Assembly (NCBI GenBank): GCA_044892525.1
Contig: CM097885.1
Span: 32,056,001 to 32,116,000 of the forward strand
Length of the DNA stretch: 60,000 nucleotides
From: Schmidtea polychroa
Taxonomy: Eukaryota
Direction: 5' to 3'
The translations under genes were made by a program, and so were the position numbers. Positions 7,359 to 60,000 of the stretch are shown here, piece by piece. The notes beneath the pieces are model-generated. The model saw only the letters and a program-made list of their open reading frames with translations. It was not told the DNA's origin and did not search any database. Each line of letters begins with the position of its first letter. The first letter of the stretch is position 1.

Positions 7359-7407
<49 letters not shown>

Positions 7408-8441: not shown

Positions 8442-8549
8442 GTAAGAAATATTTATTTTTATATATATATTTTGTTTTTTATTTATATGTTAAATTTGTA
8501 ATAACTTATTTAAATATTTTGATAAAAAACTTTTTTAAATATTTTAATA

Positions 8550-8870: not shown

Positions 8871-9044
8871 TTATACTAAGTTTCTGAAAGTTATTATTAT
8901 CAAAATATTTAAAAAGTGATTACAAATTATGGTTATAAATCCTTGTAGTTTGCAATGTGCATCTACAATAGTTAAAATAATAATAATAATAATATTAATA
9001 ATAATAATAATAATAATATTAATAATAATAATAATAATAATAAT

Positions 9045-9594: not shown

Positions 9595-9636
<42 letters not shown>

Positions 9637-9662
9637 TATAAATAATAATCAGACCCCGTCTA
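9045..9662. repeat. Array of paired palindromic TAGTCTGCAGTGAGCATGCAGCTA-type units separated by (AAT)n
   Basis: Four higher-order repeats, eight palindrome units including variants. Confidence 0.9.
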
Positions 9663-9903
9663 CTAAAATCTCTCTAATATTCTATCGAATATATTAACCT
9701 ATTTTCTATAATGATTTATCATCATTTGTTATTTAATTCAAATGAACTATATAACAAATGATGATAAATCCTTGTAGAAGTAACAATTAGTTTTCTATAT
9801 AGAAAAAAAAACAATAAAATTTTAATTTTATTATTTAACAGGTATACTATACCCGAACTATTGTCAAACATCAATTGGACATAGTGATAAATGTCATAGA
9901 ACA

Positions 9904-15236: not shown

Positions 15237-15900
15237 ATGACCTTGATGAGTCATCGCGATGACTCATATGACCTTGGGAATGACCTTGGATGAGTCATGT
15301 GACCTTGAAAATGACCTTGAGTCATAGGATGACTCAGATGACCTTGAAAATGACCTTGAAAATTTTGATGAGTCATCGGATGAGTCATATGACCTTGAGA
15401 ATGACCTTGATGAGTCATAGGATGAGTCATATGACCTTGAGAATGACCTTGATGAGGCATAGGATGAGTCATATGACCTTGAAAAAAATTTTCAAGGTCA
15501 AATGAGTCATACTATGAGTCATATGACCTTGAAAATGGCCTTGATGAGTCATACTATGAGTCATGGTCTTTGTTTCAATGACCTTGATGAGTCATAGGAT
15601 GAGTCATATGACCTTGAAAATTTTTTTTCAAGGTCAAATGAGTCATACTATGAGTCATACGACCTTGAAAATGACCTTGATGAGTCATGGTCTTTGTTTA
15701 AATGACCTTGCGAAATTTTTTTGACCTTGATGAGTCATATTATGAGTCATATGACCTTGAAAATGACCTTGGTGAGTCATCGGATGAGTCATGGTCTTTG
15801 TTTAAATGACCTTGAAAAATTTTATGAGTCATAGGATGACTCATGTTCTTTGTTTCAATGACCTTGATGAGTCATATGTCTTTGTTTAAATTTGACCTTG
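15237..15900. repeat. Subterminal array of TGACCTTG and TGA(G/C)TCA motifs, likely within the Polinton TIR
   Basis: About 25 copies of each motif by manual count. Confidence 0.9.
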
Positions 15901-15995
15901 AAAAAAAAATGTACTTTTAGACTTAGAATATTTTTGAAAATCTTACCGACGGGGGGGGGGGGGGTACTGTGCCAGCGGTGCCCAATCCATCTACT

Positions 15996-18030
15996 AAGGA
16001 TATGACACTTTTCAGGGTTTATCCTAAGACCCACCTTTCCAATTTTGTCCAGCACTTCATTTAAAACTTCGTAGCGATAATTGATCGTTTCTATAAATAT
16101 CAAAATATCGTCTAGGTATACTGCCGCATATCTCGTACTCATTAATACTTTTCCCATCAGTTCCTGAAACGTACCTGGTGCCGCTGCTATTCCAAATGGC
16201 ATTCTGTTAAAACAGTATTGCCCTGATTTGGTTGAAAACGCCGTTTGTAACTTTGATTCATCTTCTAATTCTACTTGATAATATGCATTTCCAAGATCTA
16301 TCGAACTGAAATACTTTGCTGCACCCAATTTATCTAACATCTCTGCTATATTCGGCATAGGGAACGCCTGTCTGTTACTAGGTTTAATTGCCTGAAATCA
16401 AGGCATAATCTGATATCTTGCTTTTCTGTCTTCCAGGCGCATATTAATAGAGTGTTCCATGGCAAATTAAACTTTTTGATAATATTGTTTCCCATAAGTT
16501 TTTTATCGCTTCATCTATTTTACCTTCCAAGTTGACTGGTTGTCTCCAAGGTTTAATATTTAAACAGTTTCTATTTTATGCTTCACCTTTGTGTAGCCAA
16601 TATCCCATTTATCAGCCATAAAAACATTTTGATTCTTTTATATAATGTTTAGTAGTATCGAGTTATTTATCTTTAAAGTATTCTTTGTTCTTTGAAATAT
16701 GTGCTCTTGCTTCGTTTTCTTGACCTCTTCTACTGACTACTTTAATTGTATACCAAATTGTTTTTGCAACTCTATACCACCAATTACCTCTGGAGTCTTA
16801 CTATCGTAAACTTTACCCTTCGTTTCCTGCCATTTATTCCTATTTCTAATATTGTCTTACCTTTCCTTTCTAAAACACTATTATTTGCACATCTCAATGT
16901 TTTAGTTGTTGTTGTTAGTTCTACATCTTTAAGTTTTTCAATTTTGCTCCAACTCATGACATTTACTGTAGCTCCTGTATCTTCTGCTCTTGTATTCTAA
17001 TAGTTACACTTGGTCGGCTTTGCATTTTATCATAACTAATAATATCATTTTTCCATTCATCTAATGTGAGTATTTGTATTTTGTCTCTTTATCTTTCTGC
17101 AAAATCCTTTTTTATGAATCTGTTTACTTTCTTTATTACATTATTTTCCTCGTCCGTTACCTCTCTGAATCTTTCACATCTTTTTCTATAATACATGATA
17201 TTTTACTTTTATTATAATAATTAATAATTTGGGAGTCAGCATCGCTGTTTAATACACTGCCCCGACTATCTCCTTTTTTATCGGGGCTTTGATATTTGGG
17301 TATTCACTGAATTTATCTTCTATTCTTTCATTCATCACTTGGTTCGTCTATGAATGCTACGTATCTATTGTCTCCTTCTCTTGTATCCTTTCTCATTCCT
17401 CGATAACCATTCCTTGCGTCGTATCGATCGTGTTGTCTACCAAAAGTCTCATTGATTCTCCGATATCTCATTCTCTCCATATTTGTACAACAATCTGCCT
17501 CTTTATGTCCTCCCAAGCTACACCTCATACACCTTATTTTTTGACAATCTCTTCTCACATATCCCGGGGTACCACACGCATAACATTCGACTACCTTTCT
17601 ATACATCTGTGGACACTGACTTCTTATATGTCCTTGTCTTTTTGTTAATATTGAAATCTTAAATGTTAGTTTCTTTCTGATAAAAGATATTAAAAGACTA
17701 GTTACGAACTTTTGTCTCTTATCAGTACTATTTTGGAGACGCGAAAGTTTCTCTTTGCACCAGGTAAGCATACTATATTGTTGAGTCAACTTTATTGCAT
17801 ACTTTCTCTGGTACACTGAATATCACATCACTTGCTTTTTAACTTGGTCACGGAGTTCGAAGTTTGCTGAAACTTTGCATATCGTCGTATCTGTATATAT
17901 AAAACTTTTATTGTTGTTCCTTTAAAAACAATTTCGAGAGACGGGTGACGCTTGTAGCTGAAACCGTCTGGAGTCAAAGTTGAGCTGCACCAACATGTGA
18001 ATTCACATTCAATAGTTACCATTGTGTCAA
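15996..18030 (-). mobile_element. Decayed Ty3/Gypsy LTR retrotransposon (gag zinc knuckles, RT), interrupted by the Polinton
   Basis: RT motifs YFSSIDL...RMPFG...YLDDILI...NPEKC; CYACGTPGYVRRDC and CMRCSLGGHKEADC at 17328-17816. Confidence 0.88.
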
Positions 18031-19800: not shown

Positions 19801-21679
19801 ATGGATAAATACGTAACTAGCTTTAAAAGAAAATCAAATGAAGCTGAAGCTGAAGCAGAAGCAAAGAGCGAAAATAAAGAAGAAAATTTCATAAGCATAT
19901 CTTCACAAATTAGTAAACTTAAATATAGAAAATATGACCCAGTATACTTATCATTTGGATTTACATATAAGATTATTAATGGAAAAGAGCATCCATTGTG
20001 TTTATTGTGTATGAATACTTTGGCCTCAGACAGCATGAGGCCAAATAAGTTAAAACGACATCTGAAAAAGTACATGGTGATCACGTTGGTAAGACGAAAG
20101 AACTTTTCAAAAAAAGTTAGAAAGTTTAAGTAAACAACAAGAAATGTTTCTAAAGACCATGTCTATATCACAAAAAGCATTGCTTGCGTCATATAAAGTT
20201 TCTTATAGAATTGCCAAATGCAAAAAACCACATTCGATAGGTGAAACTCTTGTGTTACCTGCAGCCATTGATATGATAGAAACTATGCTTGGAGAATCAT
20301 ATGCTGACCAACTTAAAATAATCCCCCTTGCAGATAACACGGTTGGAAGACGAATATCAGATTTATCCGAAGATCTTTGCGACCAATTAATAGAAAAAGT
20401 AAAACTATCTTCTTTCGCATTGCAAGTAGATGAAGCTACTGATGTTATTAAGGATGCACACGTGATAATATATGTAAGATATGTTGTTGAAACCGATATT
20501 AAAGAAGACATGTTGTTCTGCAAACCTATTGAATTTAATACTACAGCAAAGGAAGTTTTTAAAATCATTGATATTTTTTTTAAAGAAAATGGCATTCTAT
20601 GGGAGAACTGTGTTGGGCTATGCACAGATGGAGCTCCATCCATGGCTGGAAAAAACGCTGGTCTACAGGCACTAGTTCGAAAGGTGGCTCCTCGTGCAGT
20701 TTGGACACATTGCATGATTCATAGACAATCACTTGTATCAAAAAATATGAATGAAGATCCCCTGGCAGTATTTGAAATTGTTACAAGAGTTGTAAATTTT
20801 ATTAAAAATAGCCCATTAAGAGCAAGGATTTTTGCAAAATTGTGTGATGACATGTGTTCAGAATATAGATCACTTCTATACTATTGTGAGGTACGATGGC
20901 TTTCACGTGCTAAAGTACTTTAAAGGGTGTTTGAGCTAAAAGATGAAATCGCTATATTTCTTAGTGATAATAATAGAGACGAAGCACATTTGTTTTTTGA
21001 TACGAAATTCCTTGTTAAACTTGCGTATTTAGTTGATATTTTTCAAAAACTTAGTATTTTAAATAAATCAATGCAAGGGGCTCAATTTCATACTTTTACG
21101 CAGAAAGACAAGATCACTGCATTTATCAAAAAAATAGAACCGTGGATAATATTTTTAAAAAATAATAACTTTGACATGTTTCCAACTTTTAAACTTACCT
21201 GTCTCGCTGAAGAAATAGAAGAAAGTAAAATTTTTATTAACAATCATTTGACAAGCCTACAGAAGCAATTTTCGTTGTACTTTAAGGATCTAGACATGTC
21301 CAAATATGAATGGATTAGAAATCCATTTATGATTGAGGAGTATAATGATTTTAACCTTACGACAGCAGAACAGGAAATGATTATTGATTTATCTAGTGAT
21401 AGCACATTAAAGCAGATGTTTTATGATGTAAATAATATTGTTACATTTTGGCTAAGAGTAAAGGACGATTTTCCCACTTTGGCAAATAAAGCTTTAGAAA
21501 TTTTATTGCCATTTGTAACATCTTATTTGTGTGAAACTGGCTTTTCTACAGTAGCTGTTCTTAAAACGAAGCATCGATCTCAATTAATGATAGAAAAGGA
21601 ATTGAGAACCGCGATTTCTTCAATGATACCACGATTTGAGAAGATTTGTGCAGGAAAACAAGCTCAAATATCGCATTAA
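19801..21679 (+). pseudogene. ZBED5/Buster-like transposase with frameshifts near 20070-20110 and stop at 20921-20923
   Basis: BED finger CLLC...LKRHL, FALQVDEATD, CTDGA, HCMIHR, VRWLS, YLCETGFS. Confidence 0.92.
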
Positions 21680-34741: not shown

Positions 34742-36437
34742 ATGCTTAATTCACGTGTATGCCTTAATCGTTTTGTAATTCCAGAAACTAAATTAATATG
34801 CCAACTTTATTTTGGCATAGCACCTATAGATCCGGTAACCAATTCATGGAAATGTTCGTGTGGAAATGTTCGTAAGCAGAACATAAAACTTGGTTACTCT
34901 AACTTAATAAGCCATATCAAACAGAAACACAAAAATTATCTTGATATGTACCACCTAAGTAAAAGTGCTAGTGTCGAAGGTGACTCGCAAGATATTGAAA
35001 ATAGTAACGAATCTCGAGAAATTGTTCCTTCTCTTGCATCACGACAGATTACTCTAAAGTACATGCTTGATACTAGATCAAAAAACATTTACAAATGGAT
35101 GGAATGGATCATAATGGATGAACATGAACTCGTTTTTTGTGAAAAAGAGTTTACTCGTGCAAATACAAATCTTGAATCTATTTCCGTCAAAACAATAAAA
35201 AAGTATATGTTTAAGGTAGCAGACAAAGTAGAAAAAAAATATTTCTCTCCAAGCTAAAGAAGCACCTTGTTATGCACTAGTATTTGACGGATGGTCTGAA
35301 AATTCTACACACTTCATTGGTATTTTTATTGTCTTCTCAGGAAAAGAAAGAGAAGATGCTCCATTTATGCATCTTTTGGCCTTTGCACCGTTACTTGATG
35401 AGACAAGCTTTAATGCAGATAATCACGCTCAATTCATTCGTGCAACAACCAATAGCTACTCCCTTTCTTTGAGTAATTTATTTTGTTTAATTGGGGATAA
35501 TTGCTATACAAACAAGGCAACAGCTAATCTTCTTGGTGTACCCCTTTTAGGCTGTCGTAGTCATCGTTTTAATATAGCTGTTGAAGCCTATTTAAACAGA
35601 TTCCTTTCTACATAAACAGATGTAATAGGAATGTTGATGTCCAAATTATCAACACTCAAGCAATCAGGCAGAATGCGTCTCATGACAACACTTCGCCCAG
35701 TCAAACGAAACGTCACACGCTGGCCTGGAATTCCAGATATGTTGGAGCGTTTTAAAAGATTATTACCACGCCTAAATAACGAAGATGAAGAACTCTTAGA
35801 ATTTATTCCAACTGCAGCACAGAAAAAAAATGTTCGTGAACGTAAACAAGCATTAGTGGACTTCAAGTCGGTTACACTATCCATCCAACGAAACGACATG
35901 ACAATAAATGAATCAGAAGTTTTATTTCAATCAATAATAGATTCATATCCAGAAATGAATTTTGCATCCTATATTGGTGAAGATGCAAAAATTATTCATA
36001 ATAAGCAATTGGAATCCGCAATCATCAAAATTCAAGGAAAAAAGGAGATTTATCTGACAGTTGAAGAAAAAGAAGAAGTAAAAAAATTGTTATTAAAAGT
36101 CGATAATAATGAAGGTGATTCTCAAGAACATTTTGAAACTTTATCTTTTGCAGAGAGGGCCCTCAAGAGACAACGATTGCAAGAGAAGCAAATGTGCAGC
36201 AAGTACATCAATACTAACTTTTTAATTCCAACATCTTGTGAAGTGGAAAGACTTTTTTCTTTAGCTAAAAGAGTATTTAGTCCTTACAGAAGAAGCTTGC
36301 ACCCTCAAACTTTAGAGACATTACTTTTTCTAAATCGAAATAAGTCCCTTTGGAATTTGACTCTAGTAGCATTAGTGGTCAATGAAAAAGATAATGACAA
36401 GGATGAAGATGAATACGAATTTGAGGAAGAATGGTAA
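34742..36437 (+). pseudogene. hAT-like transposase with BED-like finger; one frameshift (~35235) and one stop (35613-35615)
   Basis: CSC...NLISHI..KH, FDGWS, IGDNC, GCRSHRFN, TRW, PTSCEVERLFS. Confidence 0.88.
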
Positions 36438-44475: not shown

Positions 44476-44720
44476 AAAGGACTGTAATGGTGGCTAATAA
44501 TATATATATGTTTTCAAATAATGATTTATTATAATTCAGAAAAATTGGAAGATGAATTCAAAAAGCTTACAAAAGACGAGGAATTGATGTATAAAGAAAT
44601 GAATGATGAATACCATTTAGAAAGTAAATTTTTCATTATCTTGGTTTTAAGTAAATTAGTTATAATTTAGATATTAAAAAGAAAAATCCTGAAGCTGATT
44701 ATGTTGGAGCGTGGCGATAA
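39248..44720 (+). CDS. Predicted small secreted peptide precursor, 73 aa (exons 39248-39335, 44540-44623, 44671-44720)
   Basis: Signal peptide MKIWYFAICMFLLMNFAFC; phase-1 GT-AG junctions; acidic spacer; KKK then NPEADYVGAWR. Confidence 0.6.
39626..39692. repeat. (TA)n microsatellite
   Basis: Direct reading. Confidence 0.95.
42106..42191. repeat. (AAT)n microsatellite
   Basis: Direct reading. Confidence 0.95.
44262..44385. repeat. Perfect 46-bp inverted repeat with 32-nt spacer, followed by (ATT)n
   Basis: 44262-44307 is the reverse complement of 44340-44385. Confidence 0.9.
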
Positions 44721-47700
44721 AATTCAATAGTTAAAAAAAATTATTTAAATATTATCTGATGACACTAATTTATTTTAAAAATTATGTTCTGTGATTAATC
44801 GATTAATTAATTTTTCAATAATTGATTTTTACTATTTGAGTGCTTATTAATTATTTGAGCACTAATTGCCGCACGCAGTAAATTTTTCAATTATTTTGCA
44901 AATAATAATCTAATTAAATATTGAAATAAAATATTAAAAGGTATGAGAATAAATCAAAAGGTAAAAATTGAAACGTCACCATGAGAATAACAAAACAAAA
45001 CTGAATCAAACTTGGTTGCTATTGAGATAACTTTATTGGGATAAGTTTACCTTGATATTGTGCTAGGATTTAAAACTATATCCACCAATATGTTTAAGTT
45101 TGTAAGCATCCTCCAGTTGGAACAGTTTTTCAGATGTACGTCCAAATCAACTTGTTGAAAATGAATTTCAGATAACTACTTCGTTTGGAAAGTTTTTTGT
45201 CAAAATAAAAGTTTCAATTGATACACATTATTATAATAGTTGGGATAATAACAAATTTTTTATAGGAATTTTGTTCTCGTGTTCAATCAAAATTAATAAT
45301 CGAATTCCAAAAAAATAATTAAAAAATGATGGGGTAGACACCGAATGGATATCACCTCCTAATCAAATACATATTTGATTCGGTTAACTTTATTCGAATA
45401 AATCGCTTTCAATTTCGTCCCTGTTTTCTCTTTGGCCGGTCAATAAAAATATTTTTAATAAAAGTTTCCTGTATCGACCAACTGGCAATTTTAAATTTTA
45501 TCTCTTACTTTTATATGGGTTGTTCCCCATTCATCATTTTCTTTTAATGGGAGTTGACGTTTCGTTACTCAAAATACCCATGTAATAATGAGACTATTTT
45601 CTCCTTATTATTTTTGTGAATGAACTTTTATCTGGTTTGATTAACCGGTATTGATATTGATAAATCTAATAATTTTTTTGTAAAAATTATTCCCATCTCA
45701 ATTAATTAATCGGCATCATAAAAATTTCTATCATTATTATTATTTTATTACACCAATCCCTCGCTTTACGAAGTCTCTTTTTACGAAGTTTCGCTATAAC
45801 ATAAATCTGTTTACAAAAAAAAATTCGATTTACGAATTTTTGTTTTTTATTTAATTAGAGAAATCACACCGTACGAATATACAGAAACAGAATACAAAAT
45901 AAAACAAATGAATTATGTATTTATTGTTGTGATTACACCAATCCCTTGCTTAACGAAATTTCAACTACTGAACCTCAACGTCAACAGACACCTTTGGTAA
46001 TAGGATCCATCTAAAATAACAGACATCGCACTCGTTTGGGCATACGAAACCGACGGGAATTAAAGGCCCTCCTAGAGTTCATGAATCAAATCTACATTGT
46101 TTTAATCGCGAAGAAATGTCAGAACTTAGACTATTTTGGTGTATTAATTTCATGTAAATCAAATCTTTCCGGATATCAAACAAATAGGAGAACAAATTAC
46201 GAGAAATGACAATTATTGGAAAGTTAGTTGAAAGTTCTGAAATTCCAAATTCTAATTCCAAATTCAATGTTGAGGATACCTGGATAACAAAAAATTCATA
46301 AAAATAATCATGGGGAAAATGGCGTCATTAAATTTAGGTTTTCAAAAAATGATTAAAAATATTGATCGAAGTCACAGAACTGGAAGAGACAATATCATAA
46401 CAATATCATAAAAATTTTCTGAAATTATTTATGAATAAAAACATTTTAGAAAGCATAAAGAAATCACTGTAATTTTGTAAAATTAATTTTAAATGAACCT
46501 GATTTAATGAAAAATATAACTTTTAACTAACCAATTGCCCATAATACATGTCCTTATCTTACAAAATCGATATGGTTTTTTTATATATAATGTCCTCAGT
46601 TCCTTAAATATAAAAAGTTAGAAAATGTTTAAGCACAATGCTCAAACTTTTTATAATAAAAAAAGTATATATTATATGTCGTCATCCCTTATTTAATTTA
46701 ATTTTGACCCTTATTTAATGTCTTTTTTTACCTTTATTTTTTGAACTTTGTACCCAGTGCTACAACAATCTTACTATTTTACACTTAGTCAGAAATTTTT
46801 TATCGTTCAAAAATGTTATATTTTTTATCCAATATTAAAACAAAAAATTACAAATTTACAAAATATTTATTCTAAACAGTAAAAGGATCAAAAGATTAAT
46901 CAATAATGACGAGTCTCATTTTAAATATCAGAAAAGAATTAAGGATGTTTTCGAATAAATTTTTCATGTTGATATAACCAATTATTCCACAAACAAATAT
47001 ATACGATTTTTAGTTAATTTTTGGTTCTTTTAGAATTGGTACCAAAAATTGCTGACTTATTAAAAAATATTATATAAAATTAGTCAGGTATTTTTCATCG
47101 TTGAAAATTTTATTTAGAAAAATGTTTTATCCAATATTTATCCAATTTGGAATATAATTTAAACCTATTGGAAAATTGAAATCATTTCTTTCTGGAAATT
47201 TTACAGTTTGGATTTAAAGGAATTCCGAAAGCTCTCAAAAATATCCAATAATTCATTTCGAGGTTTGTATGGAGTAGGAAACTTATTTTTATTTATATAA
47301 TAAAATCTTTATTAAGGAATCAGTGCTTTATACTGTTATGTTTACTTTTAAATTTTCTGTATTTTTTACTAAAAAATTTCGGGAAATACTTTCTTGCTTT
47401 GACACCTACATCGGGCTGTTGATGAATGTTAGGACCTATCTTGATCGCTTAGAAATAATCTTCAGGGCGGTTTGTATAACCGATTATCTTTCCTTTAGTA
47501 AAGGACAGTAGTTTCTTTTATATCTGTTGCGGGTACACTACTCGGATGACCCCTTTCTAGTGCAACTTTAGTCTAGAGGATGAATGCCACCTCGATTTCG
47601 CTCATCATTTATTTGGTCATCACCGAGCGGGACCCGTACATAACTTACACTCCAACATAGCACCCGTGAATTGCTTCACGTTGGAACTGTGCTATGCCGG

Positions 47701-48089
47701 CGAGACGCCAGTAAGCAGGTGAGCCAGCTCCTCCGGACTACTCCTTACTGAGGCCTCGACTTCCCAACCCTGACTGCCGATAGAAGGACTTACGTCTACT
47801 CATTCCGTCGCCCCATCGCAATGTTTCTAGCTGAGTTTGCCAACTGACTAATGCTCCTCCAAGTTTTATGACTCTCAATACCATTCACCAATTTCAACTC
47901 AACTGTCCTAAGATGAACACAAAAGGAAACGTATGCAGACAAAATGGTTTATTATTAAGATTATCACACAAATATACCTAACACCTATACAATAAAATTT
48001 ACGACCACCGGAAAAGAAACAAAGGTAAAAATGTTATCCGACAATGTTCGGGTCATTTCAGTGAACGAAGACTTGTTACGGAGAAGTTC

Positions 48090-48839
48090 TCATTTCTCCC
48101 ACTCTGAGTCTGCCAACAGATCTTCCAAATCGAAAAATTCAGAGGCATTTTCCTCCCAGGAAACACCAGCGGCGGAGATGATTCGCCCTGAGATCACTGA
48201 TGCTAAATCGATTGCTGCAGGAGGGTTGATGACTTTGATTAGATGATCCGACGATTGCTGGTTCTGTTTGGCGGTTACGCGTTCCCGCTGTTTCTTTTTG
48301 CGTTCGGCTCTCGATAATTGCCGACGCTTTGGCTTCGATGCCGTTGGATTGGTCGGGGGTGTTGCAGAGGTAGATGCCATCACAGGTAACGCTTTACTGG
48401 TTCCGGTAAAGATGACTTCTGGTTCTTTAGGTGAGAGCTCGGTCTCTACGCACCCATGGCAGGACTTTCCGACTGGAGAAGAAGATCCGCCAGAGATATC
48501 ATGATGTGCTGGGAAAAGATTACTGGCTTCATTAATTGGGATCTTCGCGATCCTCCTTGTGGTTGCTGCCTGAACGTATAATTTGTGCAGCGCCTCCGAC
48601 TGCTCTTTTATCAGGCTCCTCTGCGCCCGACTCTCGGAAATCAACGCGTCTCTACAGTGCTCGCTTCGATGCAGCTTCTTCTGAGCCTCCTTCATCTGGG
48701 TGGGACTAAACCATGTCCCCTCCAACTCATCTATCCTTCTCTTATGCTTTCCGATTTGGGCCTGGAGCTCTTTGATAATTGAATTCTTGTCGGAGCAAGG
48801 AAAACAAGGTCGAAGAACGGTCTTGGAATTTGGCAACAT
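48090..48839 (-). CDS. ORF within the putative LTR, 249 aa: CxxC, coiled coil, basic NLS-like stretch, acidic tail
   Basis: ATG at 48839, 11 nt after a strong acceptor (polypyrimidine-CCACAG); AATAAA at 47948-47953. Confidence 0.7.
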   Translation of the reverse strand: MLPNSKTVLRPCFPCSDKNSIIKELQAQIGKHKRRIDELEGTWFSPTQMKEAQKKLHRSEHCRDALISESRAQRSLIKEQSEALHKLYVQAATTRRIAKIPINEASNLFPAHHDISGGSSSPVGKSCHGCVETELSPKEPEVIFTGTSKALPVMASTSATPPTNPTASKPKRRQLSRAERKKKQRERVTAKQNQQSSDHLIKVINPPAAIDLASVISGRIISAAGVSWEENASEFFDLEDLLADSEWEK

Positions 48840-51338
48840 TTTTGAGTGACTGTGGAAAAAAAAATGAAAAATGAAAATAATTAACTCAACTGGAGTGTCA
48901 CCATCTGACCCCATTCATACTTTACAGATCATAGACAAAAATATGAGTTTACCAGTCAAGACAAGTACTACTGCACGATGGATTCTCATACCTTTTGGGT
49001 CTTTGATTATAAGAAGATAAATCGATCAAACCCGATTCCGTACACGGAAAGGAAGGTAATACTATTAGTGAGAGAGATTCTAGATCGATGAAAAAGGATT
49101 ATTTAGTTAATCCGCTTGAAGTCATTATTTCACGTTTACCGAGCATCGAGTTACATTGTTGATTTCTCCCCCCGTACGAGTGATTTTGATGAGTGTATCA
49201 TATACTGGGGTCGAGTGACTATCTATGGAAAAGGGGTCCATAATGTCTGTTGATTAGTTCCTACAGGATAAACGGAATGCTATTTAAATTTTTAATTATT
49301 TATTCATTCTCTCTAATTACTCACATATGTGTTTTGCCTGGTTTAAATATTATTTATTAATAATATTCGACATTAATATTAATGATAATTATGTCAAAAA
49401 TGACATAATTTCCGTGCCATTCATTCTACGATAATAAAGAGAGAATAATCATAATTACGATCGGGTTTAGCACTAAAAAATATTATCTTTATGATAACTG
49501 AGCACGGTATCAATGTGAGCTAGTAGCCGACCATTCCTACTAGGTAGATAAGGAAATGTCAGCCCGGTGGTTGACTATTAATCCAGAGCGGTGAAATATG
49601 ATACCTGTCGGTAGTCTAATTGGTTAACAGAAATTCCATCTGGTATGTTCGTCGGATTTTTCCTGAGTAGAGGCGTGTGTGACTTTGCCCACTGTACTTG
49701 GCCACTAGGTGAGTCTGTACCTGGTGACGCATGCAGGGTGTGCTTTCACACACTTAATTATACTACAATTGTAGGTGTTAAATGTTTGCAAGATGTCATT
49801 TTCTCAGAATTTTATCTATCGCGTAATCACTCACAATTCTCCTGCATATGGCGCTGATTTACTAATTCTCACCGGATTATTGGAAAAATTATAATTATCT
49901 GTATTGCAAATGTTGGATATAGCTTGCTCCACGGGTGGATTTTTTCGTCTTTAATTCCTCAAACCTAGTTTATCGATCTACTCTCTAAGTGCTGGAGGAT
50001 TTCTACCTATCCCTGCTGGATTGCCAACCCCACGAAATACTGGAATTTTATATTTAATTAACAAGATCATCGGCTAACTTGAAGAAATATATTTTTCGTG
50101 GCTCGCATTGGTTGCATTTTTCAATTCTAAATTATTTGATGCCAATAGTTTATGTGGTTATGATAATTAATTGTATGTAACTCCTTTTATATAAAATTCA
50201 AAAAAAATTATGATAGCGAATCATTTTATGTAATTTGAACTTTTATTTGGAACAAACTCGTTTTATGCAATTCTGAATAACTATTTGGATTAAATCATTT
50301 TACCTGGTTCTACCCTTTATTTACAAGTAGTCATTTCGAGTAAACCTAATACTTGTATGAAGCAATCTACTTTGAACTCCCTGGCAACTATGTCTTTAAG
50401 AGAACTTTTAGATGAACGGAATAACAGTTCCGTAGGTCATAGGCTAAAAATTGGTCGAAACAGATTCTGAGTGAAAAGTATGAACATCGAAGATATGTCA
50501 CAGATAGCCTCACTAAGGTTTGAACAATTTTTGACACACAACTTACATTGATGATAGAGAAAATTTAGGCTTAGCAAAACCGATATTCGAAGACGATAGT
50601 GTGACACTCTCAATCACTACGCGAATACATCAAAATTTTCCGATTCCTTTATTACATATCTTTGTTTTCAATCACTACATGACTATCAATTTCGGCCCCC
50701 ATTTACCTATAGATTTTAGTCGCACCTTCAGCGATTGGACCCGTGAAGAAGCCCTCACATTTCGGCCCAATCTAGCTGCGTGATTGAAATACCCTATGTC
50801 CACCGGTGGAGCTCCCGAAGGCACCTCACACCATGACATAGAGTATCTCAACGCCACGTTTCTCGCCAAATTGAATGGTCTCCAATAATAATTCATAAAA
50901 ATTAATTCATAAAAGATCGATAATTCTGAACGAGCAAATCATTTATTATTAAGCAAATTATTAATTTAAATAAAGTATTCTAATATCAAACGAAAAGAAA
51001 AACCATTTTTTAAATTAAGAATATTATTGAACTATACGCATTACTTAAAAATCCAAACTAAGCAATCAAAAATCCTTACCGAATGATTGATACAAGTATG
51101 GGCTGAGTCGAAAAGGGTACTATGTCGAATCAGTTAATGCTCGAGTGTCGTCTAGTTCTGTAAAAATCTTTTGAATCTTGGAATTGTCCTCGTGAGTTAT
51201 CGTGCGTTAGTTGCTGGAGTTCTGTTCCGTCGTAGAATAGATTTACCTATTGAGGTGGTTTGATTAACAGTCACAGTTATTTAAATTTCACTTACCTATT
51301 GAGGTGGTTTGATTAACAGTAATTGTTATGTTTTTAAT

Positions 51339-51378
51339 GCCTGCTTATATATTAATTTTTTGTTTGCGCGGACCAATT
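51339..51378 (-). promoter_or_regulatory. Putative LTR promoter (CCAAT box plus TATATAAG)
   Basis: Minus-strand ATTGG...TATATAAGCAGGC upstream of GTAAG donors. Confidence 0.45.
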
Positions 51379-52026
51379 AGAATTGAGTACCGCTTTATTT
51401 TATTAATTTAATTTATTTTCTTTGTTTTCGAGTTATTTCTTCTTACTTTCTTTATTAAAATTATGTTTTTATTTATTTTCCTTAATTTTCTTAGTATTTA
51501 CTATATTTTACGTTGTTTTCTGTCATTCTATTGTCTTATTTTAATTTTTCTCATCTTTATATTTTTGTTTTAATTCTTATTTTCTAATTATTGTTTTTCT
51601 TATGTTTTATTCTATTTTATTTGTCAATTTATTTGTTTTTATTTTTTATTTTATTTTAGTTCAGTTTCCCTAATTCCCAACTACCCTTCGACTCAGCCCA
51701 ACAAATCACTCGGGGACCCATCAAAATTGCGTCCCGCAATTGCATAGCTATCTTACTTCAGACATTCATAAAAAGGATATATCGAAATAATTATACTACA
51801 ATAACAAAAACAATTTTATTCTAAGATATAGGTCAAAACAAGACCAAGCAAGTATCACTTAAGGTGATAGTTTGTATATACAATAAAAGTTTCTACATAT
51901 GATAACACCAATATTTGAGTTAGAGTTTATGAACTGTTAACCATTTGATGCTTCTGCTGGCGGTTGTTGGTTGGTTTGGGTATTGATGTTGAGATAGGTC
52001 TGACTGTTAGAATGCGGCTGGATTGG

Positions 52027-52596
52027 TTAATTACTCGGGATTCGAGGTCGGACTGGGGTTGGGTTAGGATTTGTCAGTGGCATTTCTTGAGGATTTCTGT
52101 TCGAGGTTACTCTTATTGATGTCGAGATTCTGCATTTATTTCTAACTTCGTAAATCTTCATGATTATTAGTAGACATAGGAGGAGGGTTTCTGCGATCAC
52201 CACATATATGAGATAATGGGTGTCATTGATTTTGGGAGGTATTTTTGGCTTTTCTACAAGATTTTCAAAATTCTCTTGTTGCATTTGTTGTTCCAACTGG
52301 TCGAATTGTTGGATTTGTTCGAGGATTTGTTTGTTTATCATTTTACAAATGGGATTCTTTTTACACATTGTTTGGATGTTGTTGATGTGTGATCGGGTTG
52401 ATTGAATGGTTTGGATGATATGGATTTTTACTGTCATAGGGTATGTGCATTGGCCGGATTCTCGTTTAGGTTCTTGATTTTGATTTCGGTAATCTCGTAC
52501 GATTTTCGGTTGGGCGTTTACTTGTTTGTTCTCCGTCAGAATCATCAATACCGTCATTGTTATCATCATCTCGCCTCGCATGATACTATTATACAT
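52027..52596 (-). CDS. Small type-I membrane protein
   Basis: N-terminal hydrophobic segment, Cys plus coiled-coil ectodomain, TM YLIYVVIAETLLLCLLIIM, Pro-rich tail. Confidence 0.75.
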   Translation of the reverse strand: MYNSIMRGEMMITMTVLMILTENKQVNAQPKIVRDYRNQNQEPKRESGQCTYPMTVKIHIIQTIQSTRSHINNIQTMCKKNPICKMINKQILEQIQQFDQLEQQMQQENFENLVEKPKIPPKINDTHYLIYVVIAETLLLCLLIIMKIYEVRNKCRISTSIRVTSNRNPQEMPLTNPNPTPVRPRIPSN

Positions 52597-52640
52597 TCAT
52601 TATTATACATTCATTACAATTGGTTTTAGTGACCCTTAAT

Positions 52641-53348
52641 TTAATGATTCTGGTTTGGGTTATTTTCGGCGATTCTCATCAGGGTGGATTCCGCTTTAAT
52701 GACTCTGTGTCTTAACTCGGGCAGCATTTCCAACTGTCTGTTCTTTTCACGGGCCTCCCTTCTCATGTGCCTTATCTCCTTTTTCAGTCTCTTAATTTCT
52801 TCCCGTTTTTTGTCGAGATTCCTTTTTAGTTCGATTTGTAGGAAATCTTGTTCGTTTTCCTGCGAAAGGTTTCGTTGTTGTTGTTGTTGTTGTTTTCTCT
52901 CGATCTCTTGGTACTTGCGAATCTATTTCTTCATTTCCTCACTTTCTCGTTGTTTTTCCTCCAATTGTCGATTTAATTTATTTATAGTTATTTGGTGTTC
53001 TTTCGCCTCTGTTTTCCAATAATCTTGGATTACTTCTTCTGCCTTGAAGCTTGCCCTCTCTTGCCATAGTTCCTCTGCAATCTTTTCCCAGTTTCTTCCT
53101 CGTGTTCGTTGTTCTTGCAACCATTCATTCTTCTCTTCAGCTTCTCTCTTTATTTCTCCTAACACTTCGCACTCCTTCTTTAGTATTTTAATCATTTTTC
53201 GGTCTTCTATATATTTGTTTACTAGTCTCTCGTTTTCGTCCCTCTCTTCCCGTAACTTGGCCTTTAACGTTTGTGTTTCTGTTGTTTCTGCCTCAATCTC
53301 TCCCTCTTCCACGTCGCTCGTAATTTCTATTATTTCCTCGATTTTCAT
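52641..53348 (-). pseudogene. Coiled-coil protein with one in-frame TAG at 52923-52925
   Basis: Frame stays open 94 codons past the stop with the same coiled-coil composition. Confidence 0.7.
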
Positions 53349-53515
53349 ATCTGTAATATGTACAGTTAATGGTGCGCTATAGTGCGACTTATACTTATGC
53401 ATTTATATAAAATTTTAATAGTTCGGGTTACAGTCCCTTGAATACTTTTACAATACTTTAATTTTTTTGTTTGGGATATACGTCCCGATTTTTGTTTTTA
53501 TCTTTTTATTCACCC

Positions 53516-54571
53516 TTATACGAAGGTTTCCTCCTGTCCCACATAACCTTCGTCACTATCGACCGCTGGATGCAACTGTATCGCAATAGGGTCATAGGGT
53601 AGGTAATATTGGGGGATTTGAGCTCTCAATTCATTAACTTCGTCTCTTAGAGCTCGAGTGATATTCAGCTCTTCGTCGAGCAGATAAGTGAGATACCTTG
53701 TCTCTTCGTCTTTCGCCTCTACTTGTCTATCTAAGGCCTTGATTTTCTCGTCGCCCTTCCATTTTTCAATTTCTATTTCCAAGTTTTTGATATTTTCGGT
53801 ATACATTTTCCTCTCGTTTTCTAATTTTCTGTTTTTTCCCGCTAGGACCATGTTTCTTTGTTCTAACGATCCTTGTAATCCATTAAGGTCTCTTTTCATC
53901 TCTTCGACCTGATTTACTAATTCCACAATCCGTCCTGCTTGTTGGGTTATCATCTCTTCCATTGCGGCATTCTCGTGCTCTCTTATGTCGCATTTTATTG
54001 CCAAATGTCGCTCAAACTCCATAGCCTTTGTCTGCCAGGTTTGACTTCGGGCGGCGACCTTTCTCAACCGTTTCAATTCTTCCTTTATTATTAAATTCTC
54101 CTCCCATTTGCCTTGTTCGCTTTCATATCCGAGTCTCATGGGCAATTCTTTCATCTCTTTTTTCATTTCACTGTTTTGTCTTTTCCATTTTCTCGCTTCT
54201 GCCACTAAGTGCATCATTTTCCTTCCTTCTATTTGTTTTTCCGCTTCGCGCTTGGTGTTCTCATCGGTAAGTCTCTTTCTCGCTTCCTGCACCAGCTGCT
54301 TTAAGTAGTGGCTGTGCGCTTCTTGGCGGGTATTTTCTAGTGACCCCCATTTTGATGCTCTTTTGCATGCTTCTGCTTCCGCTCTTAAGTTGTGTATTAA
54401 CCATTGGTATTGACTATTCTCATCCTCTCTAGCTTCTTCGATGTGGTTTCGGGTGAGATTAGTTAGTTGAAACATTACTTTGTTCCATTTTTTGTTATGT
54501 TCTCGGGGAATTTGTGTCTTGTTGACATTGGTTGGGGCTATCGCTGTTTCGGTTAGTTTCTCTTGTGTCAT
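53516..54571 (-). CDS. Long coiled-coil (SMC/myosin-like) protein, 351 aa
   Basis: Intact E/K/R-rich heptad ORF. Confidence 0.8.
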   Translation of the reverse strand: MTQEKLTETAIAPTNVNKTQIPREHNKKWNKVMFQLTNLTRNHIEEAREDENSQYQWLIHNLRAEAEACKRASKWGSLENTRQEAHSHYLKQLVQEARKRLTDENTKREAEKQIEGRKMMHLVAEARKWKRQNSEMKKEMKELPMRLGYESEQGKWEENLIIKEELKRLRKVAARSQTWQTKAMEFERHLAIKCDIREHENAAMEEMITQQAGRIVELVNQVEEMKRDLNGLQGSLEQRNMVLAGKNRKLENERKMYTENIKNLEIEIEKWKGDEKIKALDRQVEAKDEETRYLTYLLDEELNITRALRDEVNELRAQIPQYYLPYDPIAIQLHPAVDSDEGYVGQEETFV

Positions 54572-54764
54572 CTCTAAATCATAGACATCGATTAATCTTT
54601 TTATTATGAAAAAGGAATTTATTCATTATCTACTGTTTCTTTGGGAATTTTCGCATCATTTTTGGGTTTTCGTATTTAGGGTTTTCATACTATTATTATA
54701 TAATATTTTATTGGTTATATACACCGATATATACAGATTATTATATACAACGTTATTCGATTGG

Positions 54765-56153
54765 TTACTCCGTTCTACCCTTCTCCTCTTTCCTCACGGT
54801 CATCTTGATATACACCGTGTCATTTCTTGCCATATCTTCTACTTTTTGTTGTAGGATGAACGTAGGTGCTCCTGTTGCTGATCCTTCTTCTTCCGTAGGT
54901 CTCTGGTAACACATTTGGTTTCCAGTTGTCTTGAAGCTTTGTTCGTGGATGTTTCGGTCATTCATTAGTGCAATATCGATTTTTGCCTGGAACGGCCACT
55001 CTATTATTTCGTCGTATTCCCCTTTACATAGCAGAAAGAAAATCGAAAAGTGCGTATCTAATCCGGTTCCGTCCCCGTTGGGATATATCTTCATTTTCAT
55101 TTTGTACAAATTTTTCCCAGAATGGAATGCAGGACTTGTTATTCTTGTCTCTTCTCCGGTTTTTGCTTTTCGTATTCTTTCTTTTACTCCCGTTATTTTC
55201 CATATGTAGGGTGCTGTTGGTATTACTTCATTTAGATTTATTTCCCGTATTTTCTGATGTAGCTCCTTGGCCTGATTATTACTGATTTCTATTCGGTTTA
55301 TTTGCATCTTTATGTTTGCTCGGGCTTCTTCGAACGCTTCCCTTTCTTCTAGTAGTTCTTTGACTAACACTTTCAACGATGTTATCTCTATCTCCATTTG
55401 TTTTATTTTCTCTTCGCTTTCTTGTAACGCAGTCGACCACATTTCTGCGTGGGTTGAAGCATTTTCTACTAAATGATGTGGTAACTCCCCTCGGTGTAGT
55501 AGTTTCTGACAACCCCATTTACCTAGTACACATGTCATTCTTTTCCTTTCACATTCCCTTAGATGCTGTGCCACTTTCAATATTTCCCCTTGGTTACATC
55601 CGTTTGGGCATTCCCCACTGAATTCTGCACATACTTTCTCCTCTTGGACATTGTGATGTTTGAGGGTGAGATTTTTCCACGTGTCTATTTCTCCACAATG
55701 TTCACATCTTTCCAATCTCTCTTCACACTGCCTTTGATGCTCTTTTTCTTCGCTTGCTCGAATGGTTTTATGGCACCTTTCACACTGGCCAATTCTGTAC
55801 ATACATTCTCCCATATGTTGTACTACCTTCCAGATTACTCCTTTCCATTCGCATGGGGCATTTTTGCATCCCAGGTTGGTGTTTAACATATCTTTGACTG
55901 CGGCTTTATCCTCGTTAGTGTCTTCTAAACTCGATATTAGTGTCTCTTTACACACCGGGCACCGCTGTGGTCTATTCTTTATTGCTTCACTGATACATTC
56001 CTTACATACTCTGCATCCACATTGAGTTTGGTGAGGTTCCTTTAACAACTTTTCACATATTCCGCACATAACATGTTTGTGTATTCTGATCGTTGTAGAT
56101 TTTCGTATTTGCTCGACAATCTTTCTGAACTCCTCTCTTTGTCGTTTATCCAT
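54765..56153 (-). CDS. Intronless TRAF-family protein (RING, TRAF zinc fingers, coiled coil, MATH)
   Basis: CGIC...QTQCGCRVCKEC...CPVC; YIWKI...SPAFHSG...IYPNGDGTG..THFSIFF...GEYD..IEWPF. Confidence 0.93.
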   Translation of the reverse strand: MDKRQREEFRKIVEQIRKSTTIRIHKHVMCGICEKLLKEPHQTQCGCRVCKECISEAIKNRPQRCPVCKETLISSLEDTNEDKAAVKDMLNTNLGCKNAPCEWKGVIWKVVQHMGECMYRIGQCERCHKTIRASEEKEHQRQCEERLERCEHCGEIDTWKNLTLKHHNVQEEKVCAEFSGECPNGCNQGEILKVAQHLRECERKRMTCVLGKWGCQKLLHRGELPHHLVENASTHAEMWSTALQESEEKIKQMEIEITSLKVLVKELLEEREAFEEARANIKMQINRIEISNNQAKELHQKIREINLNEVIPTAPYIWKITGVKERIRKAKTGEETRITSPAFHSGKNLYKMKMKIYPNGDGTGLDTHFSIFFLLCKGEYDEIIEWPFQAKIDIALMNDRNIHEQSFKTTGNQMCYQRPTEEEGSATGAPTFILQQKVEDMARNDTVYIKMTVRKEEKGRTE

Positions 56154-56238
56154 TCTATAATTATATGTACATATAGTCCTTATCGATACAGGTTCGATAT
56201 TTTATTTACAATTATTTACATTTTAAGCTAGGTTTGGT

Positions 56239-56598
56239 TTAGGGTTCGGAGGAGTCGGCTTCGTGTCCGCTCTCCTCTCTATTCATTAGCCAGTCCGACC
56301 AGTCTTCTATTTCTGTCTGTTCTGCTTCCTCCATCATTCTGTTTAGTTCAATTTCCTGTCTACGGCTATATTGGGTTATCCTCTCTATCTCTCTTTGCAT
56401 TTGGTCGATTTTCATCCTCTGGTCTTCAATTATCTTCAAATAACTAAATCCTCTATTCATACTCTCGATTAGGTTTCTGTGCATCGTCAATCCTTGTTCT
56501 TGCAAATTGGACACTAATTGTGCTAATACGGCACATTGTTGCTTCCATAATTCTTCAGTTACTGTATTGTGGTTCATTTCGTTATTTCCTTGATCCAT
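56239..56598 (-). CDS. Small coiled-coil protein, 119 aa
   Basis: ATG at 56598; helical; acidic tail ESGHEADS. Confidence 0.65.
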   Translation of the reverse strand: MDQGNNEMNHNTVTEELWKQQCAVLAQLVSNLQEQGLTMHRNLIESMNRGFSYLKIIEDQRMKIDQMQREIERITQYSRRQEIELNRMMEEAEQTEIEDWSDWLMNREESGHEADSSEP

Positions 56599-56758
56599 TC
56601 TTAATTTATATACACTTTTCAACTCTTATTTAAAGTTAATTTTATTTTATGATTCCCGTTATTGTATAATATTGATACCGCGCTTATATAAAGATATGGT
56701 ACTGTTATATACATAAGATATACTTACTTTTTACAATTATATACAGTCATATTCCTTT

Positions 56759-59700
56759 CTATATACGTGAGTTTGGAGGGCGCTGAGCGTTCCAGGCCTC
56801 CACCCACTGTTCTTGTTTGATATCACTTGGTCGTTTCACTCGATGTTGGAAATTTCTGATTCGGGTCATCTCTAGTTCTCCGCGATGTCGTTTATCTTTA
56901 ATTATTTTTATTGTTCCCCCCGTTATGATTAGGAAGGCTCCTGTTATTATTATCCCACTAATCCACATCATCTGCCTCACGCTTATATTTTCTGGTTTCT
57001 CCTTGTTTGTTAATGTTACTATTGCTTCTGTACTTTTCTCGTTCCCTCTTTTGCCATTTCCTTTCATCATCTCTCGTATTCTTGCTATTTCCTCGTTCAT
57101 ACCCTCCTTTGCCATCTTTTGTATTTTTTCCATCTCTTCCTCCGAAACATAGTTGTCCTGAGCTTCCTCACCGGTTTTCTTGTGCTTTCCGCCTTCGTCC
57201 TTTTCGTCGTTGTTTTTTCTTTTCTTTCCTCTTTTCACCGGGTATCGTCGACATTCCCTTTTTGATTCGTTCCTCCAGATACAAACCGTGTATTCTTTCG
57301 GCGGCTGTTGCTGCGTCACGTATTGATGGCATTTCTCACCTGGTCCTAATCTTGAAATACAGACTTTGTGCTCTTTTCTAGGTTGGAGTTGCGTTATTAC
57401 TACTTCACCACCTTTTCCTAGGTGTACCTCTTTTCCTTTAACGTTCGTTATTCTCTTCCCGTCTCGATTTCGGTATGCTTCTTGTATTCTTACTTCTGTT
57501 ATTGGTTCTGTGTCCTCATTTATCAGTACTAGTTTCTGATACGCTCTAGACATGCATCTTCCTAGTATGCACCTTTCCTTTAAGTCCCATTCCTCCTTTA
57601 AATCCCACTGCTGCTCTTGTGCTTGCTTTTTCTTTTCTTGTTTTAGCTCATCCTCTTTGCTGTCTTGATTCTCCGCTTCTTTGGTTTCTTTTATCGTTCT
57701 CGTCCCTCCATGAGCTGTTACTAACTCTATCATGGTGAGCATGATTATCATTAATATCATATTTGTCTCTATTTCTTTGTTAGTGAAAGGTAGGCATACC
57801 CTCTGTTTTCCATTATTCGGTTTTTCCTCCTCTTTGGTCTTGGTTCCCGGGCTGTTTCCCTCTCTTTTCGTATCCAAATCCTTGTTTTCCGGTTTATCCT
57901 CTTCCGGTTCTCTTTTCCCTTTATCCTCTTTTCGGCCTTTTCCGTCATTGTCATCGTGTTTATCTCCCCCGCTGTCGTTTAAAATGTCGTCCTCGACATT
58001 TATATCGTTCAATAATCTGCGATATGCTGTTAGCACCCTGTTTCTTGCTAATTTTGCTTCGAATTCAAACTCTTTTCTACCCGTTGCAGCATGTCTCTTT
58101 CTATTCCATTCTTTGACTAACTCTCTCAATTGAATACGACGATGTTTTCCCACTCGTTGTAGCTCGTTCTGATTTTGCGTGAATTTGAGGTCTTCTCTGT
58201 TTAATACTATTAAAATAATTTTTGGTGTCCCCCTTTTAGTTAATGTATTCTTTACCATTGCGTTTTCTCCGTTTTCGTAGAATTCGTTTATGTTTATCGC
58301 ATATTTATTATTTTGTGGTACCCTCCATGTTAATAATAATTTCATTGCTTCTAGATTTTTCCGTACCGTATTCCATTGAAATTGAGATGTGTTTTTGCAC
58401 ATATTTTCAACTTCTTCTTTTGTCGCATTTTTGCAAATAAATCTGATCATTTCCAAGTTTGGCTGTATGGTTGCCCAGTCCAATGTGGAGTTCCCTTCGT
58501 TTGATTTTTCGTCTAGTCTCGATCCTGATTGATGTAGGATGTGGAGTGTTTTTGGGTGTATTTTTGTTATAGCTGCATACATCATGGCGGTTTCGCCTTG
58601 TTCATTTTTCGTGTTGGTTTCCTCGCCCATATCCCCAAGGATTCTTATGATCGTTATTGCTCTATTCTCTTTTGCAGCCAGTATTGCTTGTTGTAATGGT
58701 GTTCTTGAATCTTTCGTCACCATCGTAAATGCTCGAGGCAAGAAGGTTTTGATTTTCCCGATATCTAAACCCGTGGTTTGATCTCTTGCGTATGTGTGTA
58801 CGGCTTTTATTATTTTTGACAATATTATTTCGTCTGACAGCTCTAGCATTTCCTCGAAGAATACTTCTTTTGCTTTGCGTATTATTGTCTCTTGATCTAT
58901 ACTCATTGATTTGGTTTCGATGACGTTGTTTGTGACCGTTTGGTTCGTTGTCGACTTTGGTTCCCTTGATTTCCCATACATTATATTCGTTTTCTTTCCG
59001 TTTGGATTATTGATTCGTTCCTCTGCTGTAAGTATTTGGATAATATCCAGGTAATTTTCGCGGATGTTATTCATTGTGTCCATCATATATAACACACTTA
59101 CCGTTTCCCAATATTTATTTCGTACTTGGTTAATAAATTGGAATAGTGATTTTTCGAATGTGTCGATTCGCTTTTTTGCTAACTGTTCATCTTTATGATT
59201 TGTGAATTTTATCCCTCGTTCTAGTAATTGATTCGGGATTTCGAATAGATGATGTCCTTTCATAGCTTCTCTCATCAGCGTGTTCTCTCCTCTCGTGAAC
59301 GCTTCGTTTACGTTGATCATATAATCATTTTTAATTGGATTTCTCCATGTAATTAGTATTCCGGTAATTGTTGTCAGTTTTTCTTTGATCGCTGTTAACA
59401 ATCCATCATACATGTTTCCGACTTCTCGATTGTCCTCATATGATAGTAGTTCCATCAATGACGTGAACGCCTCGGTACTTTTCCCTTCGATAGCATGATG
59501 TAGTGCATTTTTCCGCTCGTGGTCTTGTGTAGTTATTTTTGATCCAGTATCAAGTAATGCGGTTATAATGTCTTTGGTTTTGCCTCTGTTTGCTGCTATC
59601 ATTAATGGTGTGTAACCTTGGTTGTTTTCTTGTTCTGTTGATCGCTTGCAGTCGTGAAATGCTTCTATTGTTTCCAGTATTTGCTCGTTGTTACCTACTT

Positions 59701-59970
59701 TCATGAGTTTGTGTAATGGTGTGTCTCCGTAATGATCTGTTATTGTAAATAATATTGGCCATTGGCTTTTGACTACTCGCAATAATGGGTGTGTCCTTTC
59801 TCTTTTCTCTCGATCATCGTCAATAATCCTCCTAATATTTCGAAATCTAATCGATCTTTTGCCCATCCAGGTATTTTAATTTTTACCTCTTTTACAATCT
59901 TTTCCGCTTCTGATGGTTGGATACCCAATCGTCCAGTGATCGGTTCTGCGAGTTGTTGCATCATGTTCAT
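56759..59970 (-). CDS. Ankyrin-repeat protein (two tandem modules) fused to a membrane-protein part; frameshift near 59790
   Basis: GDTPLH, GYTPLMIAA, KNALHHAI, GETAMMYAA, GNSTLDWA; hydrophobic MILMIIMLTMIELVTA; FN3-like ITQLQPRKEHKVCI; TM WISGIIITGAFLIITGG. Confidence 0.85.
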
Positions 59971-60000
59971 TCTGTAGGTTTGCGAACGTGTGGTTAATGT

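Follow-up and report, generated by a model that had tools for sequence, protein, structure and literature searches.

The 60,000-nucleotide (nt) window analysed here is the stretch 32,056,001 to 32,116,000 of contig CM097885.1 of Schmidtea polychroa (assembly GCA_044892525.1), and near its right-hand end lies a compact row of genes, here called the cassette, beside a terminal region that may be a long terminal repeat (LTR). Six ATG-started, intronless open reading frames (ORFs), all on the minus strand, span 52,027-59,866 in the ORF list, as had been described in an earlier reading made without database searches (the sequence-only reading). That reading carried the cassette to 59970, where the ATG proves to be in a different frame, overlapping that of the ankyrin ORF. 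The DNA is AT-rich, and the composition of the cassette is unlike that of host DNA. Every 1-kb bin from 52 to 60 kb has a plus-strand AT skew between -0.33 and -0.55, and four-fold degenerate sites in the cassette carry A at 370 of 732 positions and T at 79 of 732, upholding the previously noted bias as an A-rich minus strand. Pfam searches returned a significant family only for the 462-amino-acid (aa) ORF and the long ankyrin ORF, and none for the other four.

Features of the terminal region and the cassette, in window coordinates
Feature	Position	Strand	Remarks
High-copy terminal region, candidate LTR	47400-51740	.	Defined by depth and GC step; left edge ~47400-47470
274-aa ORF inside terminal region	48090-48914	-	No family, no Atlas match
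Long-range stem	51074-51728	-	51660-51728 pairs with 51074-51142 around an A-rich spacer
Pumilio element behind last cassette gene	51875-51882	-	Exact match
189-aa ORF	52027-52596	-	Intronless, ATG start
Broken coiled-coil-type gene	52641-53402	-	Stop at 52923-52925
159-aa ORF	52923-53402	-	Intronless, ATG start
351-aa ORF, coiled-coil-type (E+K+R+Q 39%)	53516-54571	-	No significant family
Spacer	54572-54764	-	Elements 54749, 54735, 54723, then AATAAA 54712; TTTAG two bases before next ATG
462-aa TRAF ORF	54765-56153	-	Intact, intronless
Spacer	56154-56238	-	Elements 56220, 56210, 56171; AATAAA 56206; acceptor-like TAG before TRAF ATG
119-aa ORF, charged helical composition (E+K+R+Q 36%)	56239-56598	-	No family
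Spacer	56599-56758	-	Elements 56745, 56713, 56614; AATAAA 56646; AG one base before next ATG
1035-aa ankyrin ORF (ATG start)	56759-59866	-	1038 aa stop to stop = 56759-59875
Open frame from window edge, 75 aa visible	59776-60000	-	Overlaps ankyrin frame; no Pfam match

Contigs from four of 15 public read runs were compared with window positions 44,500-60,000. The flank is covered in run X1 by single contigs with a depth of 227-408, up to 47,485, whereas the 16 bins from 51,738 to 60,000 reach 122-693 times the flank median; in run X5 the same bins stand at 21-202 times the single-copy flank. Summed contig depth does not equal true copy number, and the latter is stated only as being on the order of hundreds. 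Between 47600 and 60000 the X1 depth stays above single-copy throughout. From about 47,400 on, the DNA up to the window edge is repeated at high copy number, and the single-copy flank of this repeat suggests that it is dispersed in the genome. This bears out the proposal of a mobile, high-copy cassette: depth across 51,738-60,000 is hundreds-fold and not that of a single-copy region. The 13,649 contigs placed from X1 fill all identity bands (3822, 4296, 3923 and 1608), which points to several subfamilies. Run X2 looks RNA-like and has similar low depth on the cassette and on non-genic flank, and therefore says nothing on cassette expression.

The 462-aa ORF matches two MATH families (PF22486, E 8.8e-26; PF21355, E 8e-25) and, over its cut-off, the RING family PF00097 (Pfam). 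In comparison with solved structures, the C-terminal parts of TRAF3 (best E 1.8e-27), TRAF1 and TRAF2 match, and the RING/zinc-finger part matches TRAF5 and TRAF6 chains, giving the order RING, zinc fingers, coiled-coil stretch, TRAF1/2/3-type MATH. Because the matches cover both parts, we conclude from the predicted domains that the protein is a full-length TRAF; the sequence-only reading had named it a full TRAF ligase, and RING, zinc fingers and MATH are all present, with the ligase role a prediction from them. A Cys replaces the usual His of the RING, as it also does in the single relative (P0001, 36% identity) matched among 3888 candidates. The SSS stretch of TRAF3 has a role in gripping receptor peptides; since it aligns to QMC in the cassette protein, the peptide specificity of the latter may differ from that of TRAF3. 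Five unnamed proteins (P0153-P0157, 1129-2185 aa) were also seen to carry 6-13 tandem MATH-like repeats each, some of them with N-terminal TRAF zinc fingers, and no reverse transcriptase (RT) or integrase domains were found in these five in a search for longer forms limited to sizes of 810-2310 aa.

Ankyrin repeats (Pfam E 7e-18) occur in the longest ORF together with two hydrophobic segments, at aa 706-724 (signal-peptide-like) and 974-992, which accords with the ankyrin-membrane fusion proposed earlier. The ORF contains an internal duplication, with two ankyrin-plus-helical modules (25% over 201 aa, E 3e-13). A Cys-containing region predicted to be all-beta lies between the hydrophobic segments, and a tail of 46 aa follows the second. 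Two single-sequence fold predictions, made with an FN3 or Ig ectodomain in mind, were of low confidence (pLDDT 45 and 39); Foldseek gave no match, and the best Z was 4.5. Generic ankyrin matches were all that a homologue search returned, and the C-terminal 349 aa gave 0 matches among 1970 candidates and no Atlas match. Probably the ankyrin ORF forms the end of a longer ORF whose start lies beyond the window. Because the frame entering from the window edge overlaps the ankyrin start, and because four contigs of other copies diverge from the window at 59803, the two frames have probably been separated in the present copy by a frameshift near 59,800-59,815. The 189-aa ORF has a hydrophobic N-terminus, a strong hydrophobic segment and a Pro-rich tail, and its product is predicted to be a type I membrane protein with a transmembrane segment at 128-146, in line with the small membrane protein of the sequence-only reading.

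Coiled-coil-type composition recurs among the cassette proteins, with no Smc family match in Pfam. A 93-aa stretch (52641-52922) lies in the same frame as the 159-aa ORF; as the two frames are continuous except for a single stop, they probably represent one gene broken in the present copy. Its likely start is the second ATG (53348), before which stand a Pumilio element (53364) and an acceptor-like CAG. The present copy is decaying: it has a stop inside one frame and, where the ankyrin ORF has its 5' end, a probable frameshift. The six ORFs described earlier stand as such, but the 159-aa and ankyrin ORFs are probably not whole genes, their lesions having been overlooked. Of the 40 listed differences between copies (from 1721 in total), 27 fall in cassette ORFs, and 14 of these are synonymous, compared with 32% expected for random transitions (p 0.027); in a small and non-random sample, this is modest evidence of purifying selection on the cassette ORFs.

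At the left of the repeat, GC steps from 0.22 to 0.40 at 47400. The terminal region exceeds the cassette in depth at both of its ends, reaching 934x in X1, and the middle (49153-50703; ~49150-50700) falls to 28-48x in X1 and 0-2x in X5. Such uneven depth would be expected of an LTR whose core varies between copies, or of a nested insertion. Candidate TG...CA termini are present at 47400 and 47473, with no convincing inner end, primer-binding site (PBS) or polypurine tract (PPT), and no second copy of 47400-51740 was found inside the window. The putative LTR noted earlier thus stands as a high-copy terminal region, while the hallmarks of an LTR (inverted termini, PBS, PPT, second copy) were not found. 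Position 47473 was considered as an LTR end and dropped: loose ends at 47448 in runs X5 and X7 resemble the window farther left, and the GC step is at 47400. All four listed inter-copy differences in the 274-aa ORF of this region are synonymous. A short protein-like frame on the minus strand (50675-50938, 87 aa stop to stop) has no Pfam match.

The inner end of the terminal region can form a long-range stem of 43 pairs, 3 of them G-U on the minus strand. Its energy is -55.6 kcal/mol on the minus strand vs -44.6 on the plus strand, and 500 shuffles gave a mean of -29.6 and a best of -43.0. The stem could serve in genome cyclisation or in priming. Rfam gave one chance match and no family, and no tRNA was found. 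An assignment of this inverted repeat (51.1-51.7 kb) to a miniature inverted-repeat transposable element was rejected, as no target-site duplication was apparent by eye and the G-U pairs favour an RNA stem. Because the minus strand is A-rich and forms the stronger stem, it is favoured as the element RNA, and we infer with reasonable confidence that it is the sense strand and that the cassette lies 3'.

The spacers between the ORFs carry an array of Pumilio elements that the earlier account omitted. The Pumilio response element (PRE) consensus is UGUANAUA, with a repressor role (PMC11182014), and the motif is also given in PMC3192847. Elements were counted as TGTA[ACT]ATA (UGUAHAUA) in the five spacers and in the 250 nt that follow the last stop, in total 845 nt of sense sequence. 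This set contains 10 exact elements in sense and 2 in antisense orientation; dinucleotide shuffles have a mean of 0.51 and a maximum of 4, and 0 of 1000 reach 10. The element at 53364 is the eleventh exact match, and the other five ORF bodies contain none. The motif had been spotted by eye, and therefore an unbiased test over 8-mer patterns was run. TGTANATA ranks first among all 8-mer patterns with one free position (p 3.8e-10), and a smaller best p was obtained in 1 of 300 simulated spacer sets. Seven single-position variants have 4 matches in total vs 11 exact ones, and in none of 78 host windows of equal size are there more than 2 elements. TATA-box and AATAAA patterns are unenriched (94/1000 and 288/1000 shuffles, respectively), and a TATA-box reading of the spacer motif was rejected on the former result. 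AATAAA follows motif clusters at three places (56646, 56206 and 54712). From its sequence, the motif is rather likely to be read by a PUF protein. The planarian protein DjPum is expressed in, and required for, stem cells (PMC5855632).

Four of five genes have an A/T-rich AG whose end lies 1-4 nt ahead of the likely ATG, against a background of 6.4% per position, and these acceptor-like AGs resemble host acceptors at 44670 and ~44539. To judge from the sequence, the chances that the putative acceptors are used are about even. Trans-splicing of a spliced leader (SL) is reported in planarians (PMC10899757). The host acceptors belong to the last exons of a plus-strand gene (44540-44840), of very high depth in X2, in which a 47-nt GT-AG intron (44624-44670) is skipped and poly(A) loose ends occur at 44834-44839. 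Within the sequence itself, the pointers to a dugesiid planarian host are its AT-richness and this 47-nt intron.

Burro/GYPSM1 elements (Jurka 2007; Grohme 2018) are giant gypsy-like LTR retroelements of dugesiid planarians, more than 30 kb long, with MATH_TRAF, Smc, BIR, ankyrin and BCL2-like domains and an env-like region (PMC6431247). In the Dugesia tigrina element MATH_TRAF is on a separate accessory ORF 'upstream' of ORF1, a role of the cargo in host-meddling is called unconfirmed, and section 7 of the same paper leaves expression of genes beside or downstream of the polyprotein unaddressed (PMC6431247). The excerpts of PMC11410931, PMC13309565 and PMC4558846 add nothing on cargo. TRAF, ankyrin and Smc-like cargo is thus already published for Burro, and the class and most of the domains are known. 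For the Pumilio array, the acceptor-like sites and the two predicted membrane proteins, no paper describing them came up in listings and passages on Burro/GYPSM1, on Pumilio elements in retroelements, or on SL or subgenomic expression of retrotransposon accessory ORFs; subscription papers, Repbase and Grohme 2018 with its supplements may already map these ORFs. No related loci were found among the metagenome or viral contigs searched.

Building on the observed copy number, coding domains, strand bias and motif enrichment, we consider the cassette to be very probably retroelement cargo, and the predicted domain content makes membership in the Burro family likely. On balance, we lean towards the reading in which a Burro-like planarian element carries the row as its 3' accessory block and expresses it as processed mRNAs under host Pumilio repression. 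The minus strand would be the element RNA, with the cassette near its 3' end, and splicing to the acceptor that immediately precedes its ATG would give each downstream gene an mRNA of its own, either in cis from the element leader or by SL trans-splicing. An internal poly(A) site within the spacer that follows would provide the 3' end of each mRNA. In stem cells, the cargo mRNAs would be deadenylated or silenced by host Pumilio until PUF activity falls. The proteins would then form a signalling set of membrane anchors, ankyrin scaffold and TRAF ubiquitin ligase or adaptor, for which TRAF biology (PMC7586133) suggests, by analogy, an action on the survival or immune signalling of the host. On this analogy, the chances that the cassette proteins modulate host signalling are about even. 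The immune or apoptosis kit of the sequence-only reading remains plausible by domain content, but Pfam found no BIR or BCL2 match among the window ORFs, in an element that runs off the window edge, and no strict TRAF-binding motif is present in the two predicted cytoplasmic tails. In a bolder and unlikely version, the cassette would be a polycistronic signalling operon, cut by the host SL machinery and Pumilio-gated, with the TRAF ligase and the membrane proteins switched on at stem-cell differentiation; the cargo could then explain much of the TRAF expansion reported in planarians, and the RNA (hundreds of copies, 11 sites each) could titrate Pumilio like NORAD, a PUM-sequestering long non-coding RNA.

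Several points weigh against the favoured reading. There is no gag, pol or env in the part of the element inside the window; the RT fragment at 15855-16358 lies 31 kb away with no shown link, and 47400-51740 yielded no matching inverted LTR termini, PBS or clean PPT. Of the Burro-type element proposed earlier, copy number, MATH_TRAF and ankyrin are in place, while gag-pol and paired LTRs are not found in the window. The likeness to Burro is by domain description, no Burro sequence having been recovered for direct comparison. Only the 27 best-supported of 1721 differences enter the synonymous count. The acceptor pattern was defined post hoc and depends, in two genes, on taking the second ATG; AAG stands at one of its sites, and the 351-aa ORF does not conform to it. 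The Pumilio motif was first seen by eye in spacers from one copy only, two of the six spacers as first defined are without an exact site, and UGUA is also the poly(A) enhancer of CFIm. No strict TRAF-binding motif occurs in either predicted cytoplasmic tail (ankyrin and 189-aa ORFs). Finally, the D. tigrina MATH_TRAF ORF is placed 'upstream' of ORF1 (PMC6431247), and our arrangement has it downstream.

The same Burro-like element could instead use the motif as a 3'-end signal (CFIm UGUA before AAUAAA) or a promoter signal (a TGTATATAA TATA box), each gene being its own unit. The AATAAA signals behind the three clusters fit this account, TGTA alone is enriched (18 vs 7.7, 0/1000 shuffles), and several sites read TGTATATAA. 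However, the full 8-mer is kept at all 11 sites and single-position variants are nearly absent, whereas CFIm or TBP need less than the full 8-mer. The TATA pattern is unenriched, three sites lie 16-18 nt before the ATG, too near for a TATA box, and four sites are TGTAAATA or TGTACATA. We judge this explanation rather unlikely.

An improbable alternative is a plus-strand element that has its gag-pol beyond 60000 on the plus strand and, just inward of its 5' LTR, the row as an accessory block in antisense. Such an arrangement would agree with the MATH_TRAF ORF upstream of ORF1 in D. tigrina (PMC6431247). U5 could correspond to the T-rich tract at 51351-51670 on the plus strand, and the inverted repeat might act in self-priming of the kind used by Tf1. 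Yet the A bias on the minus strand is extreme even at silent sites, the stem is weaker on the plus strand, where it loses its G-U pairs, and no PBS was found on the plus strand.

We give a very low probability to another large mobile or endogenous viral element, with a gene row like that of a DNA virus and with the terminal region as a repeat of its own, lying next to it or nested in it. The compactness of the intronless genes, the shortness of their spacers, the lack of a retroelement core in the part within the window, and the uneven depth inside 47400-51740, whose middle is almost absent in X5, would suit it. The one-strand A bias and the combination of TRAF, ankyrin and coiled-coil content fit Burro instead, and the X1 depth is above single copy all through 47600-60000. 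There is no Polinton or viral core match: within 47400-60000, where the element is cut by the window, no protein-primed DNA polymerase B (pPolB), integrase, ATPase, protease, capsid or terminal inverted repeats were found. A host cluster of retrocopied TRAF and ankyrin genes, to which the many TRAF/MATH transcripts reported in planarians (PMC6109357, PMC7586133) might point, is largely refuted, and retains hardly any probability, given the hundreds-fold depth over the whole block including spacers vs the single-copy flank, and a composition unlike host DNA.

Elsewhere in the window, a Polinton/Maverick-like gene set occupies 159-13898. It includes an A32-like ATPase (1942-2568), a chromodomain-bearing rve integrase (3182-4276) whose frame continues through an interrupting ATT microsatellite, an adenain protease (6799-7266), and a 1130-aa ORF (10506-13898) for which Pfam gave only a weak endonuclease VII match and which looks like a protein-primed PolB. 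No similarity was found between the Polinton-like genes at 1.9-13.9 kb and the 47400-60000 repeat. A decayed LTR-type fragment on the minus strand (15855-17771) contains the RT match and a zinc-knuckle-like ORF, and two broken hAT-type transposase genes lie on the plus strand at 19801-21679 and 34742-36437.

The planarian TRAF expansion has been reported as a host gene-family expansion, with no link to Burro in the excerpt (PMC6109357), and counts of 121 MATH domains in one transcriptome and 282 contigs in another are given (PMC6109357, PMC7586133). Part of this reported TRAF/MATH expansion may be element-borne, a possibility that the cassette makes testable. If true, element-borne TRAFs would affect the reading of RNA interference and expression data on 'TRAF' genes. 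The Pumilio sites, if functional, would put cargo genes under a host stem-cell regulator, and the spacer anatomy is open to exact tests in animals where Pumilio is essential for stem cells.

Compared with Burro/GYPSM1, the cassette shares high copy number, MATH_TRAF and ankyrin cargo, coiled-coil-type proteins that may correspond to the Smc-like cargo, accessory ORFs and a long terminal region (~4.3 kb), and, with the D. tigrina element, MATH_TRAF as a separate ORF. It differs in that BIR, BCL2, gag, pol and env are unseen within the part in the window, the TRAF ORF may stand on another side of ORF1, and a whole TRAF, RING to MATH, is predicted beyond the MATH domain alone. The two predicted membrane proteins are a further difference, and the spacers with Pumilio elements and the acceptor-like sites go unmentioned in section 7 of PMC6431247. 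The TRAF itself has the canonical order (RING, zinc fingers, coiled coil, MATH) of TRAF1/2/3/5-type adaptors and E3 ligases, and differs from them in being intronless and element-borne, with His to Cys in the RING and QMC for SSS. Complex retroviruses have spliced 3' accessory genes and flatworms have SL-trans-spliced operons, and to both the cassette is alike in its co-oriented downstream genes with short spacers and, by its sequence alone, in acceptor-like AGs before starts and poly(A) signals in spacers. Like Pumilio-regulated mRNAs, it has clusters of perfect UGUANAUA in non-coding sense sequence; PRE-containing Drosophila genes have 1-15 sites with a mean of 1.5 (PMC11182014), vs 11 in 4.9 kb here. 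The distinction from those mRNAs and from NORAD is that the putative sites lie between the cistrons of a many-copy mobile element.

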